Assembly (NCBI GenBank): GCA_964462155.1
Contig: CAYWWH010000003.1
Span: forward strand, 1,211 to 28,943
From: an uncultured Candidatus Saccharibacteria bacterium
GTDB taxonomy: Bacteria; Patescibacteriota; Minisyncoccia; Phycocordibacterales; UBA12088
DNA length: 27,733 nucleotides
Direction of reading: 5' to 3'
The notes below the pieces were generated by a model that was not told the DNA's origin, did not search any database, and saw only the letters and a list, made by a program, of their open reading frames with translations. Below, piece by piece: positions 6,936 through 27,721 of this stretch (positions within the stretch are counted from its first letter, which is position 1; every line of letters starts with the position of its first letter). Both the position numbers and the translations under genes were made by a program.

Positions 6936-7856
6936 ATGAATACAGCTTTCTCAAAATTAAGCATTCTTATTGTAGTAGCGCTTATCCTTTCACTTGGTGG
7001 AGGTGTGTATGCTCTTATAAAAACTCTGAAAGAAATTAGGGATGAAGTGTCAACCGTACGGAGTGAACTTGCCTCAACAACGAACGCACTCTCACTATTC
7101 TCCTCTTCAACAACAAACAGAATATACGAAGCTGAAAAGAAACATACTGAACTTTCTGACCTATTCTACGAAGAACAGACAAAGTACAGCGAATTAAGTG
7201 ATAGCGTACGAAAATTTGATAGACAAGTCGATAAACTCAGTGGAAACGTAGAAACACTTGAGAAGCTCACAACGACAGATCCAGAACTCCTCCAGAAGTA
7301 TTCTCGCGTGTACTTTTTAAACGAACACTATAAACCGGGTGACCTCTCCATTATTCCTGAAGAGTACGACCTCATTGATGGTAAGCAGGTAAGCATACAC
7401 TCCGACGTCCTTCCCTACCTCAAAGACTTACTCAAAGGTGCTAAAGATGATGGTGTAAACATTATGGTACTTTCGGGATATCGCTCATTTGAAGATCAAG
7501 CAATACTTAAAGAAAACTACCTCGTTCGTTACGGACTTGGTGCAAACCAGTTCTCTGCTGATCAAGGGTACTCAGAACATCAGCTGGGAACGTCTGTTGA
7601 CTTTACGACGCAAGTTATTGGTCAGAACCTTTCTCTCTTCGATGGTTCTGACGCATTTCAATGGCTCATAAACAATGCCCACAAGTACGGCTTCGTACTT
7701 TCCTACCCTAAGAATAACGAGTACTACGTCTACGAACCGTGGCACTGGCGTTTCGTCGGTGAAGATTTAGCACGTGATTTAAAGAAAGATGGTAAGTACT
7801 TCTACGACCTTGAGCAGAGAGAAATAGACTCGTACATCCCCACTCTGTTTGATTAA
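6936..7856 (+). CDS. Membrane-anchored coiled-coil M15B D-Ala-D-Ala carboxypeptidase (VanY/LdcB-like)
   Basis: N-terminal TM, coiled coil, then SGYRS, SEHQLG.SVD (SxHxxGxAxD-like Zn motif), YGF.L.YP and YEPWHWRFVG. Confidence 0.9.
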   Translation: MNTAFSKLSILIVVALILSLGGGVYALIKTLKEIRDEVSTVRSELASTTNALSLFSSSTTNRIYEAEKKHTELSDLFYEEQTKYSELSDSVRKFDRQVDKLSGNVETLEKLTTTDPELLQKYSRVYFLNEHYKPGDLSIIPEEYDLIDGKQVSIHSDVLPYLKDLLKGAKDDGVNIMVLSGYRSFEDQAILKENYLVRYGLGANQFSADQGYSEHQLGTSVDFTTQVIGQNLSLFDGSDAFQWLINNAHKYGFVLSYPKNNEYYVYEPWHWRFVGEDLARDLKKDGKYFYDLEQREIDSYIPTLFD

Positions 7857-9657: not shown

Positions 9658-10017
9658 TTATTCATGTATCGTTAGATTCTTCATGCGTTTTGTTCGAAGG
9701 CGGTTACTTGGAAGCATCCCGTAAATTGCTTTACGTAACACTTCACTGTAGCCCTTCTTTTCAATAATTTTTTGCATAGAAAGAGTTCGCAAACCATCTG
9801 GATACCCTGAGTAGCGAGTGTAGTTAGTTTGCTTTCGCTTCTTCTCTTCAATGAGAAGTTTTCCAGTATGCACTACAACAACCTTTACAGGTGCTACTAC
9901 ATTTTTAACTACATCTGTTCGATGCTTCCCCATAAGGAGAGTTGCTATTTCAGTTGCCACTCTTCCAAGGCGTTTCCCTGTTGCGTCTATTGTGTGTTGT
10001 TCTACTTTCTCATTCAT
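9658..10017 (-). CDS. rplM: 50S ribosomal protein L13 (short, 119 aa)
   Basis: IDATGKRLGRVATEIA.LLMGKH, YSGYPDGL, AIYGMLP. Start trimmed from 10161 to ATG 10017 because the extension overlaps rplQ. Confidence 0.95.
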   Translation of the reverse strand: MNEKVEQHTIDATGKRLGRVATEIATLLMGKHRTDVVKNVVAPVKVVVVHTGKLLIEEKKRKQTNYTRYSGYPDGLRTLSMQKIIEKKGYSEVLRKAIYGMLPSNRLRTKRMKNLTIHE

Positions 10018-10412: not shown

Positions 10413-11396
10413 CTAGCGTAATGTTATCCCGAACTCTGAAAGAGCACGCTTAATTTCTTGCAAGCCCTTAAGTCCTAATCCCTCAATTGCAAGGACATCC
10501 TCCTCACGTTTTCTTGCTAAACCTCCTACTGTGCGGATGTTTGCTTGATCAAGTGCGGTAATAGTTCGGGTTGATAGTTTGAGAGATTCAATGCGTGTTT
10601 TAAGAACTTCGGTGTCAACTTGCTCTTTCTGTTTTGGTTGAAGATTTGTTGTTTCCACTCTTTCAACTGAAACTGGGGCGACTTCAACAACCTCTTCTTC
10701 TTTTGACTCCTTGAAACCAACGATTGCTTTGAGCTGGTGTATCATTATTTCAATCGATTTTTCAAGAGCTTGTCGAGGAGTGATTGCACCGTCGGTCTCA
10801 ATGAAAATGCGAAGGCGGTTGTAGTCAGTCCTATCTCCAACGCGCATGTTCTCAACCTCATAGTTTACACGGCGGATAGGGGTAAATGTAGCATCAAGTT
10901 GAATAGTGCCTATCTCTGCTTTTTCACTGTTTCGAAGCTCACGAGGAACGTACCCAAGACCTTTCTCGAGAGTGATTTCAATGTTAAGAGAAGCGTTCTT
11001 TGAAGTAAGTTCGGCTATGTGCTGTTCAGGGTTTAACACTTCAACTTGGCCGGTTACCTTAATGTCTTTTGCGGTGACCTCTCCAATACCTTTTGAAGAA
11101 AGAGTTAATACCTGCGCCTCATCTCCAATCATTTGGAAGCGCACTCTTTTTAGGTTAAGGAGAATAGTTATTACATCTTCCTGAACACCTTCAAGCGTTG
11201 CAAACTCATGAGGAACATCATCAATCTTAACTGAAGTAATAGCAGCTCCTGTTAAAGAGGAGAGGATAATTCTTCGAAGTGAATTACCAAGTGTATGTCC
11301 GTACCCTGGAAATAATCCATCTATTTCAAAACTAGCGGAGTTTTTATCCTCCATAACTACTCGGGGCTTTGAAGGCAGTGCTACTTTGTTATCCAT
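10413..11396 (-). CDS. rpoA: RNA polymerase alpha subunit
   Basis: GYGHTLGNSLRRIILSS, HEF, LEKGLGY, DATFTPIRRVNY.VENMRVGDRTDY, and an intact alpha-CTD. Start trimmed to ATG 11396. Confidence 0.98.
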   Translation of the reverse strand: MDNKVALPSKPRVVMEDKNSASFEIDGLFPGYGHTLGNSLRRIILSSLTGAAITSVKIDDVPHEFATLEGVQEDVITILLNLKRVRFQMIGDEAQVLTLSSKGIGEVTAKDIKVTGQVEVLNPEQHIAELTSKNASLNIEITLEKGLGYVPRELRNSEKAEIGTIQLDATFTPIRRVNYEVENMRVGDRTDYNRLRIFIETDGAITPRQALEKSIEIMIHQLKAIVGFKESKEEEVVEVAPVSVERVETTNLQPKQKEQVDTEVLKTRIESLKLSTRTITALDQANIRTVGGLARKREEDVLAIEGLGLKGLQEIKRALSEFGITLR

Positions 11397-23570: not shown

Positions 23571-24668
23571 TTATCCAATAATCCCTCCTCCGAGGCACTT
23601 TTCACCTTGATACAAAACGACACTTTGCCCTCTCTGCACAAAGGGTTGTGGCTTGTCTAGCAAAAGCTCACAAGTTGTATCTGTACAAGATTTAAGAGTT
23701 ACACTAAAAAGCGGTTGTCTATACCTCAGTCGAGCCATACATGTTTTTGGAGGAGGTGATATCCAGTTACACTCTTGTAAGAGGATCGCACTTGTTGAGA
23801 CCCCCTCTTCCACATCACTGTTTCCAACCACTAAGATGTTTTTAGTAACATCTCTCTCTACGACGTAGTACGGTTTCGACGTCGGTGTTTTTTTGTGTAT
23901 GGTAAACCCGTGTCGTTGTCCAAGCGTGTACATCTGTGCACCATCATGGACCCCTATCACATCACCTTCCATGTTTAGCACATTCCCTTTTTTACTTTTG
24001 AGGTAATGAGATAAAAAATCTTTCATATCCACTTTCCCGAGAAAGCAGATGCCTTGGCTATCCTTCTTTTTTGCTGTAGGCAGTGTAAATCGGTCAGCTA
24101 AAACACGGACGTCACTCTTTTCAAATCCACCAACAGGAAAAAGGGTTTTACTCAACTGCTCTTGATTCAGAGTCCAGAGGAAGTAGGTTTGATCTTTTTG
24201 TGCATCTTTCCCTGTATATAGTTCATAGCGCTTTTTACTTCCCTCCTCAACTTCTCGCACTTGTGCATAGTGTCCCGTAGCTACGTGGGTATAACCATTA
24301 TCCAGAGCATAACGAAGTAAACCTCCAAACTTAATGTACTTATTACACATGACGTCGGGATTTGGAGTATTACCTCTTGCATACTCAGCGACTAGATACT
24401 CGACGACACTTTTCTCATACTCATGCGAAAGATCAATAGTATGGAACGGAATATGGAGGTGAGCAGCGACTCGCATGGCATCACGCCTTTCTTCGCGCCA
24501 TGAGCAAGGAAGCCAAGGAACACTCCACGTCTTTATAAAGGCGCCATGGACTGTGTGACCCTCTTCGAGAAGGAGTGCAGCAGCAACCGAGCTATCAACT
24601 CCCCCCGAAAGGGCCACCAAAACCCTAAAACGGGGACTGTCACGTTTTTTTTCCAAAATATGTGTCAT
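23571..24668 (-). CDS. mnmA: tRNA-specific 2-thiouridylase
   Basis: ALSGGVDSS, TPNPDVMCN, ATGHY, KDQTYFL, KKDSQGICF, TLGQR, LRYRQ, GQSVVLY. Confidence 0.98.
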   Translation of the reverse strand: MTHILEKKRDSPRFRVLVALSGGVDSSVAAALLLEEGHTVHGAFIKTWSVPWLPCSWREERRDAMRVAAHLHIPFHTIDLSHEYEKSVVEYLVAEYARGNTPNPDVMCNKYIKFGGLLRYALDNGYTHVATGHYAQVREVEEGSKKRYELYTGKDAQKDQTYFLWTLNQEQLSKTLFPVGGFEKSDVRVLADRFTLPTAKKKDSQGICFLGKVDMKDFLSHYLKSKKGNVLNMEGDVIGVHDGAQMYTLGQRHGFTIHKKTPTSKPYYVVERDVTKNILVVGNSDVEEGVSTSAILLQECNWISPPPKTCMARLRYRQPLFSVTLKSCTDTTCELLLDKPQPFVQRGQSVVLYQGEKCLGGGIIG

Positions 24669-24674
24669 AATAAT
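24627..24674 (+). repeat. Left inverted repeat of the RAYT element
   Basis: AAAACGGGGACTGTCACGTTT (24627-24647) is the exact reverse complement of 25393-25413; the ungapped match continues to 48 bp (40/48 by hand count). Confidence 0.92.
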
Positions 24675-24675
24675 A

Positions 24676-25347
24676 TTATCCTTTTCTCGGTCTTCCAGGA
24701 GATCGCATTGTTGCTTCCAAATGATACTTATTAACCATCGAATCGACCCATGTCATGTTCCCATAGGGCACTCCCTTATTTACTGAACCTCGAATCAATT
24801 CTAATTCTTCTTTTTGGAGAGGGGTGTTAATAAACTTTGAATATGTGCCAGTAATTTGAAAAGGGATTGGTTCAATAATTTTTCTCTGATTTTCATCACC
24901 ATGAACCCTCCTCCATGCACTACCCCACTGCCAATCTTCACAACGGGAAGATATTTTCGCTCGAACAGGATTATACTCAATATATTTAAACACTGTCATC
25001 AAATATGAACCTGAACTTACAAGGAATGATTTATACCTTCCTTGATATAAATGTCCAGCTCCAACGGTATCGGTTATAGTATGCACCTGGCGAGTATGTG
25101 CGTTTGTAACTCTATGCATAAACAAACCCAAATCTCCGTCATTAACAGGTTGTAAAAGCAAGTGCCAATGATTAGGCATAATCACGTATGCTAGAATCCG
25201 CATGTCAGTCATCTCTTTTGCATCAACCATTAAGTTTTCGAACAAACGATACTCGGTAGGTGAATTAAAAATCTGCATTCCTCCATTTGCACGATTTATA
25301 ACATGAAAAATTTCACCACCAACATCAACACGAGCTATTCGAGGCAT
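24676..25347 (-). CDS. REP-associated tyrosine transposase (RAYT/TnpA-REP, Y1_Tnp HUH family)
   Basis: MPRIAR...G.IFHVINR, YVIMPNHWH (HUH), LYQGRYKS, YIEYNPVRA (catalytic Tyr + NP), WQWGS, and C-terminal GRPRK. Confidence 0.92.
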   Translation of the reverse strand: MPRIARVDVGGEIFHVINRANGGMQIFNSPTEYRLFENLMVDAKEMTDMRILAYVIMPNHWHLLLQPVNDGDLGLFMHRVTNAHTRQVHTITDTVGAGHLYQGRYKSFLVSSGSYLMTVFKYIEYNPVRAKISSRCEDWQWGSAWRRVHGDENQRKIIEPIPFQITGTYSKFINTPLQKEELELIRGSVNKGVPYGNMTWVDSMVNKYHLEATMRSPGRPRKG

Positions 25348-25365
25348 AATAAATTTAAAATATTA

Positions 25366-25413
25366 ATAATTATAACACAATATTTAAAAAATAAACGTGA
25401 CAGTCCCCGTTTT
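25366..25413 (-). repeat. Right inverted repeat of the RAYT element
   Basis: Minus strand AAAACGGGGACTGTCACGTTTATTTTTTAAATATTGTGTTATAATTAT; partner of 24627-24674. Confidence 0.92.
25369..25377 (-). promoter_or_regulatory. Extended -10 (TGtTATAAT) for the transposase, inside the right repeat
   Basis: Perfect TGnTATAAT, 21 nt before ATG 25347. Confidence 0.6.
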
Positions 25414-25415
25414 TT

Positions 25416-26453
25416 TTAGTCGAGGTAGGAACGACGGTTAGCTAGATGTTCTGTGTAGGTTTTTGCAATATGGAGAAGACCATCTCTTCCATGAAGGTAA
25501 AAGAGTGCGTCTGTTTCTATGGGAGAAACCGCTGCGTCAAGCGCCTCAAGAGACGGACTCCCGATGGGTCCAGGAGGAAGTCCCCCGTTTCTGTATGTAT
25601 TGTAGAGCGAATCAACTTCAAGGTCAGAAAATTTTGGATTAAAGGTTTCTGTTTTTTCAATAAAACCAAAAACAGCATCCACCTGAAGAGGCATGTCTAT
25701 ACTTAATCGCTTCCAGAGAATTCCAGCAATCGCCCGTCTCTCCTCATAGTCTCGTGCCTCCTTCTCAAGGAGAGATGCCATGGTCACTATTTCATGGACC
25801 GGCCTACCAAAGGTCGCGATTTTACCTTCAAGGGTTCGAAGTCGTTCGTAGAACGTACGCTCCATGGTGTTTAAGATAAGTGCAGTATCTGCATTCGGCA
25901 GAAAGTAGTACGTATCAGGAAAAAGGTACCCCTCTTTCTCCTCAGCAAGGAGCATAAACTCATCACTATTAAAACGCTCAAACTTATCTCTAAAAATCTC
26001 TGCCATTTGGTACGTCGTCGCACCCTCTGGAATGGTCACCTTTACAGGTTCTAACCCGAACTCCCCACGAGTTACACGAGAAGCGATCTCAGTAAGTGTA
26101 AGTGGCTCACTAAAGTAGTAGTCACCTGCAAATACTGGCGCATTGTCGAGAGCATACGTTACGTAGAGGGTAAAGAAGAAACTGTTCTCAATCACTTCCT
26201 CTTCAGCAAAGATACGAGAAACACTATCAAGAGTAGAACCTTCTGGAATCGTAATAATTGTTTTTACAGGGAAAAATGGTGACGGCTGGTACACCTTGAA
26301 CCACACCCATGCACTTCCAAAGAACAAAGAGAGAAAAAGGATTCCAAAAAGAGCAAGTACTTTTTGCTTATGGTAAAGCCAAAAATCCTTTCGCCATAGA
26401 GACACCTTTTCACATACAGAGATAACATATTCTCGTACAATTTTTATATTCAT
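25416..26453 (-). CDS. mltG: Endolytic transglycosylase
   Basis: N-terminal TM, ITIPEGST, AGDY, VTIPEG, EGYLFPDTY, ASLLEKEA (catalytic Glu), LQVDA, YNTY...GLPPGPIGSP. Start trimmed to ATG 26453, 1 nt after the upstream stop. Confidence 0.95.
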   Translation of the reverse strand: MNIKIVREYVISVCEKVSLWRKDFWLYHKQKVLALFGILFLSLFFGSAWVWFKVYQPSPFFPVKTIITIPEGSTLDSVSRIFAEEEVIENSFFFTLYVTYALDNAPVFAGDYYFSEPLTLTEIASRVTRGEFGLEPVKVTIPEGATTYQMAEIFRDKFERFNSDEFMLLAEEKEGYLFPDTYYFLPNADTALILNTMERTFYERLRTLEGKIATFGRPVHEIVTMASLLEKEARDYEERRAIAGILWKRLSIDMPLQVDAVFGFIEKTETFNPKFSDLEVDSLYNTYRNGGLPPGPIGSPSLEALDAAVSPIETDALFYLHGRDGLLHIAKTYTEHLANRRSYLD

Positions 26454-26454
26454 A

Positions 26455-27714
26455 CTACCTTGGAAGATTAGAGGGGGCTTGAGCACGAGTTGACTCAATG
26501 CGTTGCATAGTAGGAGTCTTCGCAACACTTCCAGGTATATGAAAGAGTGTCGCCAACTCCTCGCTCGTCATCATGAAATTGTAAAACTCGTACGGAGGAT
26601 GGAACCAAGAACGACGTCGATACGCATCAATTATAGTCACTTTGTCAACGGCCACTTTCTTGCCATTAAAATCTTGCCATGGATAGTTAAAACGTGGCTC
26701 CCATCTGTCTCCAATGACACTTATAGAATTGTACCCGGGACTGCCAAATGGTTGCCACATGGTAAGAAGCCCAGTGATGTTTGCATCATCAAAAGATTCT
26801 TTCTCTGCGATGTAGATAGCCCGTATACCAAAATCCCAGTGTGTACTTGAAAGTCCAATACGGTTCATGAGCTGGACTCGCTTTACCTGTCTATCGCTTA
26901 AAACTTTCCCTTCTCCACCATTAGGGAAAACAATAGTCTCTTCTGGCTTTGAACGAATGTTTGCAAGCTCTTCTTTGGCATACTCATCGTATGTCTTTCT
27001 GTTTCTGTAGAAACCCCATGTCAAATCCTCTTTCTTACTCGCGCGAGCGAGTATCTGAATCCACATATACTCACCCTTCTTGAGACATCCTAAAAATTCA
27101 AAAATGTGATTAAGAGGATCAACTTTCTGCTCTTCCTTGCTCGCTGTTTGATTCAAATTGTAATCAACATACGTACGTATAGGTACTCCTATTTTATCCG
27201 CTAACCCGAAATCACATCCGAAACAGTTGTGCGTTTCAAGTGAGAATGGGAATTTCATCGCATAGTCTTCTACGGGAATTATTTCAATGTCTGGATAGTG
27301 TGCGTAGAAACTTCGTTCAACCATTCTCTGAAAAAACTTTCTCGCCCATACGTAGAGGTGTACCTCACCTTCAAAAGAGACGAGTTCAAACGAGTACCAC
27401 ATGCGCACTTTTCCCGTCCAAAGTCGATCAATAAAGTTTGCTTCACCTCCCTTTATCCATAATCCATCAAGAACAGCTTGCATGGCTACAGGAGACTTAT
27501 ACACCTCCTGAGGAAGACGGATCTCAAGGAGAACCATTTCTTGCTTCTCTATAAAACGCGAGCGAACATAATCAAGCCACCTGTACCAAAAAAACACCGC
27601 AAGAAGTGGTGGAACCCAGTATGGTGAAAAACTGAGAAAATACCCTACGTAATGAAAGGCCTCTTCAAACTGCTCCCACAGTGAGGGTAGCTGTGCAAGT
27701 AACGACTCGTACAT
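26455..27714 (-). CDS. Conserved hypothetical membrane-anchored protein (CPR-type)
   Basis: N-terminal TM, then LEIRLP...KSP.AM, YSFELVS..GEV..Y, YPDIEI..VEDY, PIRTY, DPL, WIQIL.R, ELATLFHIP. No Walker A motif. Alternative GTG start at 27717. Confidence 0.85.
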   Translation of the reverse strand: MYESLLAQLPSLWEQFEEAFHYVGYFLSFSPYWVPPLLAVFFWYRWLDYVRSRFIEKQEMVLLEIRLPQEVYKSPVAMQAVLDGLWIKGGEANFIDRLWTGKVRMWYSFELVSFEGEVHLYVWARKFFQRMVERSFYAHYPDIEIIPVEDYAMKFPFSLETHNCFGCDFGLADKIGVPIRTYVDYNLNQTASKEEQKVDPLNHIFEFLGCLKKGEYMWIQILARASKKEDLTWGFYRNRKTYDEYAKEELANIRSKPEETIVFPNGGEGKVLSDRQVKRVQLMNRIGLSSTHWDFGIRAIYIAEKESFDDANITGLLTMWQPFGSPGYNSISVIGDRWEPRFNYPWQDFNGKKVAVDKVTIIDAYRRRSWFHPPYEFYNFMMTSEELATLFHIPGSVAKTPTMQRIESTRAQAPSNLPR

Positions 27715-27721
27715 CACCTGT

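Follow-up and report, generated by a model that had tools for sequence, protein, structure and literature searches.

A probable TIRtron between mltG and mnmA in a Patescibacteria contig: one tyrosine transposase gene with two inverted ends

The transposase gene and its inverted ends

Between mltG and mnmA on contig CAYWWH010000003.1, assembled from an uncultured Candidatus Saccharibacteria bacterium, lies a 787-bp unit (24627-25413, reverse strand) made up of an inverted repeat, a transposase gene, and a second inverted repeat. Coordinates are those of the stretch that we analyzed, 27,733 nucleotides in all and hereafter called the window. We consider this unit to be probably a TIRtron, i.e., a compact, low-copy element that consists of one gene for a TIR-associated tyrosine transposase (TIRYT; TIR, terminal inverted repeat) and two terminal inverted repeats of ~48 bp. 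The mltG/yceG gene (25416-26528, reverse strand; Pfam YceG, TIGR00247) is located upstream of the insertion, and mnmA, encoding a tRNA 2-thiouridine synthase (23571-24668, reverse strand; NCBIfam MnmA, 398 bits, aligned from residue 15 of the open reading frame), is located downstream.

The two arms, each 48 nt long, are complementary at 40 positions (83%) and are separated by 691 nt. The upstream arm (25366-25413, reverse strand; the left end in gene orientation) starts 2 nt past the mltG stop codon TAA (25416-25418) and carries a promoter-like sequence in its inner part. Only 1 nt lies between the transposase stop codon and the downstream arm (24627-24674, forward strand; the right end), into which the 5' end of the mnmA reading frame extends. 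Their outer 21 nt, AAAACGGGGACTGTCACGTTT, are identical in the upstream (25393-25413) and downstream (24627-24647) arms. The window tips read AAAACGGGGACTGTCACGTTTT, and the tip type is also given as GGGGACTGTCAC. An 18-mer from the tip, AAAACGGGGACTGTCACG, has exactly two sites in the window with up to 3 mismatches allowed, compared to 0.03 expected, and none of 100 shuffles contained two or more matches; neither this 18-mer nor the degenerate 12-mer core has a third copy in the 27.7-kb window beyond the two arms. In both tips, the core GGGGACTG fits the motif GGGGWSAS at seven of eight positions, with a T for an A at position 7. The GTAG or GTGG foot, corresponding to the GT[AG]G guide of REPs, is absent from both tips, and no direct repeat flanking the element (a target-site duplication) rose above the shuffle maximum. 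The GC content of the element is 36.3%, versus 42.6% in the window and 44% in the two neighboring genes. Searches of the window for Rfam families and tRNAs found none.

An initial annotation, made from the letters of the window, had described a 48-bp inverted repeat with a perfect outer 21 bp, AT-rich relative to its neighbors, without a target-site duplication and with ends that lack GTAG; all of this is borne out here. It had also stated that the repeats enclose only the transposase gene. The sole long open reading frame between the arms is indeed that of the transposase (24676-25347, reverse strand, 223 aa), but the mnmA frame (23571-24668) begins inside the downstream arm, on the left by coordinate.

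In the 223-aa protein, a Y1/HUH core (approximately residues 1-135; Pfam Y1_Tnp, 47.5 bits) is followed by a helical domain at the C terminus and by a basic tail, PGRPRK (24682-24699, reverse strand), which resembles an AT-hook and may act as one. The HUH motif is H60-W61-H62 within PNHWH (25162-25170, reverse strand), and its aligned counterpart in E. coli TnpAREP is HMH. The predicted catalytic tyrosine, Y122 (24982-24984, reverse strand), lies in K-Y-IEYNP, a class-2 "Y---NP" motif, and falls in the catalytic tyrosine column both of the alignment of Di Nocera and colleagues and of structure 4er8. An alignment of 24 homologs shows no variation at H60, H62, Y122, N126, G218, R219, or P220 and at least 90% conservation at W61. 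The closest solved structures, by sequence profile and by fold, are E. coli TnpAREP (4er8), then the TnpA proteins of ISDra2 and IS608. An AlphaFold2 model with a predicted local distance difference test (pLDDT) score of 76 had 4er8 as its best Foldseek match (E 9e-9). In this model, the C-terminal region is helical with moderate confidence, and the last 30 residues (194-223; pLDDT <50), the basic tail included, are disordered. A Pfam search with the C-terminal 93 aa (131-223) at E values up to 10 returned nothing meaningful, and no Bac_DnaA_C, HTH_23, or HTH_28.

The transposase is thus a Y1/HUH protein of the RAYT-related class, and within this class its closest counterparts are published TIRYTs, whose sequences we took from Additional file 5 of Di Nocera 2013 (PMC3733652). 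It is 37% identical to rba 2408 in a gapless alignment over 222 aa (E 3e-62) and 38% identical to dau 2153 in an essentially gapless one (E 1e-56), and both alignments take in the C-terminal domain and the RGRPRK tail. In contrast, identity to the E. coli RAYT is 22% and is limited to the core. In NCBIfam, the protein matches REP_Tyr_transpos (NF047646) alone, at 71.3 bits, below the equivalog cutoff of 80. We therefore classify the element as a TIRtron rather than as a RAYT with a new kind of REP. The name RAYT, used in the initial annotation, holds for the broader class to which the Y---NP motif and the match to 4er8 assign the protein; given the NCBIfam score and the distance from the E. 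coli RAYT, it does not hold in the strict sense.

Related elements, empty sites, and movement as a block

An exact-sequence look-up of the transposase gave no record, whereas a protein similarity search returned more than 2,000 clusters at 90% identity, all of ~223-225 aa. The best matches (60-66% identical) come from Kaiserbacteria, Yonathbacteria, Lloydbacteria, Paceibacterota, and Minisyncoccota, and a library clustered at 50% identity contains 203 representatives with E values up to 1e-30. We gathered 83 related loci (numbered L001 onwards), 70 of them with both flanks. Inverted repeats with arms of 16-59 nt occur at the equivalent position in ~68 of these 70, so that the repeat is conserved beside orthologous genes, and the genes neighboring the orthologs vary from locus to locus. 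The tips align without gaps across relatives, with a nearly invariant core G-GGG(A/T)CAG. The exact motif GGGGWSAS is present in 108 of the 138 ends of relatives, as GGGGACAG or GGGGTCAG; the core variant GGGGACTG of the window was found at none of the other loci. The two tips of one element differ by a mean of 1.36 of 20 nt, compared to 4.88 between elements, so the ends evolve together with their own element.

At the mltG-mnmA junction itself, an empty site of the kind envisaged in the initial annotation exists. Three relatives (L088, L089, and L090) have eight genes collinear with the window, but in each of them mltG and mnmA are only 30-60 nt apart, with no match to the transposase. Comparison of these junctions with the window shows, at the level of sequence, that the gene and both ends were inserted as one block between mltG and mnmA in the lineage of the window. 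In the window, the downstream tip abuts AGG GTT TTG GTG GCC, the codons for the conserved (K/R)-VLVA stretch of MnmA; the mnmA start codon ATG (24666-24668) lies inside the downstream arm, so that the inverted repeat codes for the first ~14 residues, MTHILEKKRDSPRF. In relatives, the N termini of MnmA are unrelated to this one and close with KKK-VLVALSGG. It seems that on insertion the element took the place of both the former spacer and the 5' end of mnmA. The start codon of mnmA is now part of the element, and losing the element would thus probably be costly; for genome annotation, the mnmA start of this organism is one that the element provides.

Two other pairs of loci bear on movement and on persistence. 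The elements of L067 (4439-5159) and L074 (104-824) are 96.4% identical, and the homology coincides exactly with the element, from one tip to the other, the flanking sequences being unrelated. Such a break in homology at the tips supports the compact unit of gene plus two ends proposed in the initial annotation. At L055 and L061, which are syntenic, the element is 87% identical and the flanks are 73-75% identical. The ratio of nonsynonymous to synonymous substitution rates (dN/dS) was 0.05-0.09 in four pairs, reflecting strong purifying selection, and the gene is intact. Taken together, the varied contexts, the empty sites, the breaks at the tips of L067 and L074, the synteny of L055 and L061, and the dN/dS values show rare block-wise movement combined with long vertical persistence under selection.

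Flanking direct repeats above the shuffle maximum were absent from 67 loci besides the window, the exceptions being L055 and, weakly, L004. At L055, a 20-nt direct repeat, TTCTTGAACGGAAAACCGAG (9927-9946 and 10686-10705, approximate positions), flanks a single element at distances of 10 nt and 2 nt from its ends; no other clear case occurs among the 70 loci. A GC content lower than that of the flanks was found in just 30 of 52 related elements, and we rejected AT-richness as a general sign of foreign origin. In a more distant subfamily, the final codons of the gene run into the downstream arm, and the core contains the stop codon.

Several loci contain further copies or relatives of the gene. 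At L001 (3871-3924 and 3949-4007), the whole upstream arm and the first ~30 nt of the transposase gene are tandemly duplicated. L063 shows something similar, with a partial copy of the gene (residues 1-77) shortly before the complete one. One contig (L037, 4-672 and 10121-10663) bears two divergent TIRYT genes, 10 kb apart and 68% identical in nucleotide sequence. A distant Y1 paralog (22% identity; L071, 11974-12537) lies 1.3 kb downstream of a TIRtron. Near the insertion in the window, upstream of mltG, a 420-aa protein (26455-27717, reverse strand) is 66-82% identical in the three syntenic relatives, versus 59-64% for MnmA; its orthologs have no precomputed Pfam match, and it is a conserved Parcubacteria protein without an assigned function.

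Hairpin potential, promoter-like signals, and copies of the tips

Each tip is an imperfect palindrome, AAAACG..CGTTTT in the window and, more generally, of the form AAA(N)G-G..CAG..C-C(N')TTT. As single-stranded DNA (ssDNA), the window tip has a predicted stability of -3.4 to -5.5 kcal/mol (z -0.1 to -2.5), and values overall range from -0.5 to -7.5 kcal/mol, with short stems and 7-10-nt loops. A structure of nine pairs was evaluated on 133 distinct tips: 70.7% of cells were paired, compared to 64.9% in shuffles, and covariation was 0.146, compared to 0.087 (0 of 500 shuffles reached the observed value in either case; every slid control was lower). One covarying pair shows UA 76, AU 16, CG 5, and GC 2. 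The palindromes that the initial annotation had considered able to form an ssDNA hairpin are thus present and partly covarying, but they fold weakly. A stable hairpin as a universal feature was rejected, some subfamilies (e.g., that of L003) barely folding at all. From these patterns, a hairpin or cruciform that is stabilized by the protein is plausible at the tips.

The inner part of the upstream arm contains TGTTATAAT (25369-25377, reverse strand), an extended -10 promoter-like motif 21 nt before the transposase ATG. The corresponding pattern, TGnTAnn[AT]T, is found in 30 of 68 upstream arms of relatives, versus 7 of 69 downstream arms. Just 6 nt lie between the -10 motif and the ATG in 22 of these 30 loci, a spacing that points to a leaderless mRNA; with 21 nt, the window is the outlier. 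We infer that the inner upstream arm acts as the promoter of the transposase gene. The tips were also considered as intrinsic terminators, and this was rejected after a consensus scan found no terminator-like site at either tip.

Tips are not confined to the two ends of an element. Within the related loci (525 kb), extra copies of an element's own tip occur in about half, compared to ~0.4 expected by chance; they are mostly 0.3-4 kb from the element and are oriented as the nearer end. A scan of 185,579 genomes, a collection that does not include the source genome, with the window tip AAACGGGGACTGYCACGTT gave three single matches in other phyla and no locus with two matches. Two of these three matches are REPIN-like inverted doublets of GGGGACWGTCAC with short spacers, one in an Acidobacteriota metagenome-assembled genome (MAG; L086, ~7625-7680) and one in a Phycisphaerae MAG (L087, ~2340-2385). 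No Y1 transposase lies near these doublets within the 8-kb loci, and tips of the TIRYT type therefore exist as free repeats in other phyla.

Just outside many ends, we observed short tandem copies of the outer tip (e.g., GGAAATGGGG and GGAAATGGGGTCAGG), which we call stutter. They are present at L009 (~255-290), L040 (~1140-1185), L031, L018, L020, L057, L070, L083, and others, and are absent from the window. The terminal 7-mer recurs within 50 nt outside 33 of 133 ends, compared to 0 of 119 in a control window 200 nt further out. Stutter copies could be left over from successive rounds of cutting and rejoining of the tip.

Some extra tips lie outside the element in a nested arrangement, with genes between the extra tip and the element. 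These genes are hicAB at L003 (3261-3948), mazEF at L008 (556-1328), and a D12 methyltransferase and an AlwI-like endonuclease at L081 (10683-15123); further intervals hold helix-turn-helix (HTH), NUDIX, GNAT, or DUF genes. Such nesting might reflect the capture of cargo, or simply a hot spot at which selfish genes gather. At L076 (9443-9555), a TIRtron with tips of the type AACGGGGTCAGGAGCCCTTT is preceded, ~300 nt upstream, by three direct copies of a different tip type, AACCGTGTCAGGTACCCTTT, at a spacing of 45-48 nt.

Known systems and competing explanations

TIRYTs and TIRtrons were defined by Di Nocera, De Gregorio & Rocco 2013 (BMC Genomics 14:522, PMC3733652), with rba 2408 (Rhodopirellula baltica), dau 2153 (Desulforudis audaxviator), and gbm 2474 among the examples. 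Some TIRYT repeats were reported there to be self-complementary and to form moderately abundant families, and the mobility of TIRtrons was proposed by analogy only. Quentin 2018 (PMC6006769) described TIRYTs as RAYT-like Y1 proteins flanked by TIRs with the consensus GGGG[AT][CG]A[CG]; this motif, GGGGWSAS, is a feature of the main TIRYT group and not of all TIRYTs. Subclass 2.1 of TnpAY1 in that survey, which holds 20 of 26 published TIRYTs, corresponds to RAYT Group 1 of Bertels 2017 (PMC5581495). Among RAYT groups, Group 1 and one other come closest to insertion sequences.

The window element and its relatives share with this class a single Y1/HUH gene between long terminal inverted repeats without GTAG REPs, the GGGGWSAS motif in 108 of 138 ends of relatives and at seven of eight positions in the window, the full-length identity of 37-38% that extends over a C-terminal domain of the form ...IRxSVxxGxPFG...W...LE.T.R.RGRPRK, and a low copy number with occasional solo or clustered repeats. 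The "different REP-like family" of the initial annotation is therefore not new, since its architecture and its G-rich core match the known TIRYT/TIRtron class (PMC3733652, PMC6006769). Differences from the published examples lie in the host (Parcubacteria/Patescibacteria), in the T for A at position 7 of the window core, and in the block-wise mobility, documented in the present set by an empty site and by homology that breaks from tip to tip. With subclass 2.1/Group 1, the Y---NP motif, a length of ~220-240 aa with a conserved C-terminal extension, the lack of canonical REPs nearby, and a low copy number are shared. The key motifs are similar without being identical: the window protein has NHWH for the published NHVH/NH[YF]H, YQ for W[EQ]/FQ, and YIEYNP (YVERNP in relatives) for YIELNP/Y[IV]HLNP. 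Unlike members of that subclass, it lacked the C-terminal HTH-like Pfam similarity (Bac_DnaA_C, HTH_23, HTH_28) at E values up to 10.

IS200/IS605 elements (IS608 and ISDra2 TnpA) have in common with the window element the Y1/HUH fold, the absence of a target-site duplication, hairpin potential at the ends, and a size of ~0.7-0.8 kb. However, their end hairpins are on the same strand and are not inverted repeats, whereas the window ends are inverted. Their transposases have a Y---Q motif and a core-only protein of ~150 aa (subclass 1.1, PMC6006769) instead of YIEYNP in a 223-aa protein with a C-terminal domain, and these elements usually occur in multiple near-identical copies, often with tnpB. 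The RAYT/TnpAREP systems with REPs or REPINs (E. coli YafM, 4er8; Nunvar 2010; Bertels & Rainey 2011; Messing 2012) resemble the window element in catalytic fold and motifs, in a gene flanked by inverted copies of a presumed cognate palindromic site, and in housekeeping-like selection. They differ from it in that the window ends lack the GT[AG]G foot and are 20-48 bp long with a weak, AT-rich stem, in that the window protein exceeds theirs by 60 aa and scores under the NCBIfam cutoff, in that the gene moves with its ends, and in that a high-copy repeat family is typical of RAYT systems whereas the window has only the two flanking copies. A literature search pairing RAYT or TnpAREP with the candidate phyla radiation (CPR) found no relevant paper among the results listed.

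By homology with TnpAREP and with the TnpA of IS200/IS605, the protein would recognize the tip of the repeat through the conserved G-GGG(A/T)CAG core, set in a weak, partly covarying palindrome. With Y122 and the HUH metal site, it might nick the DNA at the tip, its substrate probably being single-stranded DNA or an extruded hairpin, and such nicking may mobilize the unit as a whole or, at times, one end by itself. For the basic GRPRK tail, a role in holding the AT-rich inner arm is possible.

Several points weigh against a TIRtron that moves in this way. The empty-site relatives are only 59-65% identical to the window in MnmA, so that the insertion is old, and neither its exact target nor any accompanying deletion can be reconstructed. 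Cleavage and excision are predictions from homology, and the window element may no longer move. Its core GGGGACTG is one base off the published consensus and unique among the loci. The hairpins are thermodynamically weak, with some subfamilies folding no better than shuffles, and the covariation comes mostly from one base pair among phylogenetically related sequences. Lastly, inverted ends place the motif on opposite strands, and the same-strand "peel and paste" of IS608 is thus not simply transferable.

We weighed four other explanations. A domesticated, immobile RAYT-like gene, following the logic of a REPtron, would be a single-copy host gene whose product spreads or processes short ends as a REP/REPIN-like family, the flanking repeats being its nearest members. 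Extra solo ends far above chance, the GGGGACWGTCAC doublets without a nearby gene in Acidobacteriota and Phycisphaerae genomes, the housekeeping-like selection, and the retention of the element in synteny at L055 and L061 would all fit such a gene, as would a best-match identity of the transposase (66%) similar to that of MnmA (65%) and the domestication of most RAYT groups (Bertels 2017, PMC5581495). Yet the gene and both ends are jointly absent from syntenic relatives, a near-identical unit in two unrelated contexts loses homology at its tips, the window has no extra copy, and extra copies elsewhere are mostly within a few kb rather than dispersed; moreover, Group 1 (Quentin subclass 2.1, with most TIRYTs) is among the two RAYT groups most like insertion sequences. 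We regard domestication as unlikely. An orthodox, canonical RAYT with a new family of cognate REPs that lack the GTAG foot would account for TnpAREP as the best solved homolog, for the class-2 Y---NP motif, and for the palindromic tips. It is very unlikely in view of the NCBIfam score (71.3 versus 80), the core-only 22% identity to the E. coli RAYT, a C-terminal domain of 85 aa with an RGRPRK tail that is typical of TIRYTs and missing in RAYTs, and ends that are 20-48-bp inverted repeats with a TIRYT motif instead of short GC-rich REP hairpins.

The repeats of an ordinary gene might instead be purely regulatory, providing a promoter upstream and, to either side, a hairpin that serves as bidirectional terminator or insulator, and have no role in cleavage or mobility. 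This would explain why upstream arms conserve an extended -10 at a constant spacing to the ATG, and also the form of the tips, which are palindromes of an A-run, a stem, and a T-run. But the tips contain no terminator-like site, their hairpins combine short stems and loops of 7-10 nt with low stability, and a terminator needs neither a loop GGG(A/T)CAG conserved across orthologs that are 45-66% identical nor ends that co-vary within one element. Block-wise presence and absence and the homology breaks at the tips would also be left unexplained, making an exclusively regulatory role highly improbable. Chance similarity or an assembly artifact, for which the origin of the window in an uncultured-organism assembly is the only argument, is a negligible prospect: shuffles never yielded two copies of the 18-mer, and more than 65 independent contigs, assembled from many different samples, share this architecture. 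A TIRtron thus remains our favored reading of the window element.

A broader conjecture, which we offer tentatively and think doubtful as a whole, is that the TIRtrons of Parcubacteria are autonomous Y1/HUH transposons that use inverted hairpin ends, leave stutter copies of their tips, and carry cargo (toxin-antitoxin and restriction-modification genes) between nested ends, forming a widespread, overlooked family in the element-poor CPR genomes. If true, their transposition would have a geometry outside the same-strand model of IS200/IS605. We know of no biochemistry on TIRYTs to date, and a small conserved element with sharply defined tips would be a convenient substrate for studying how a Y1 nuclease handles inverted ends.

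The class itself has been known since 2013 and was analyzed again in 2017-2018; what is new here is the host group and the comparative evidence of block-wise mobility. Gain or movement of the gene and its two ends as one block was not shown for the class in the 2013 and 2018 surveys. The assignment also gives a name, and an anchor in the literature, to a very common "transposase" annotation of Parcubacteria, one that comprises more than 2,000 clusters at 90% identity and 203 at 50%.

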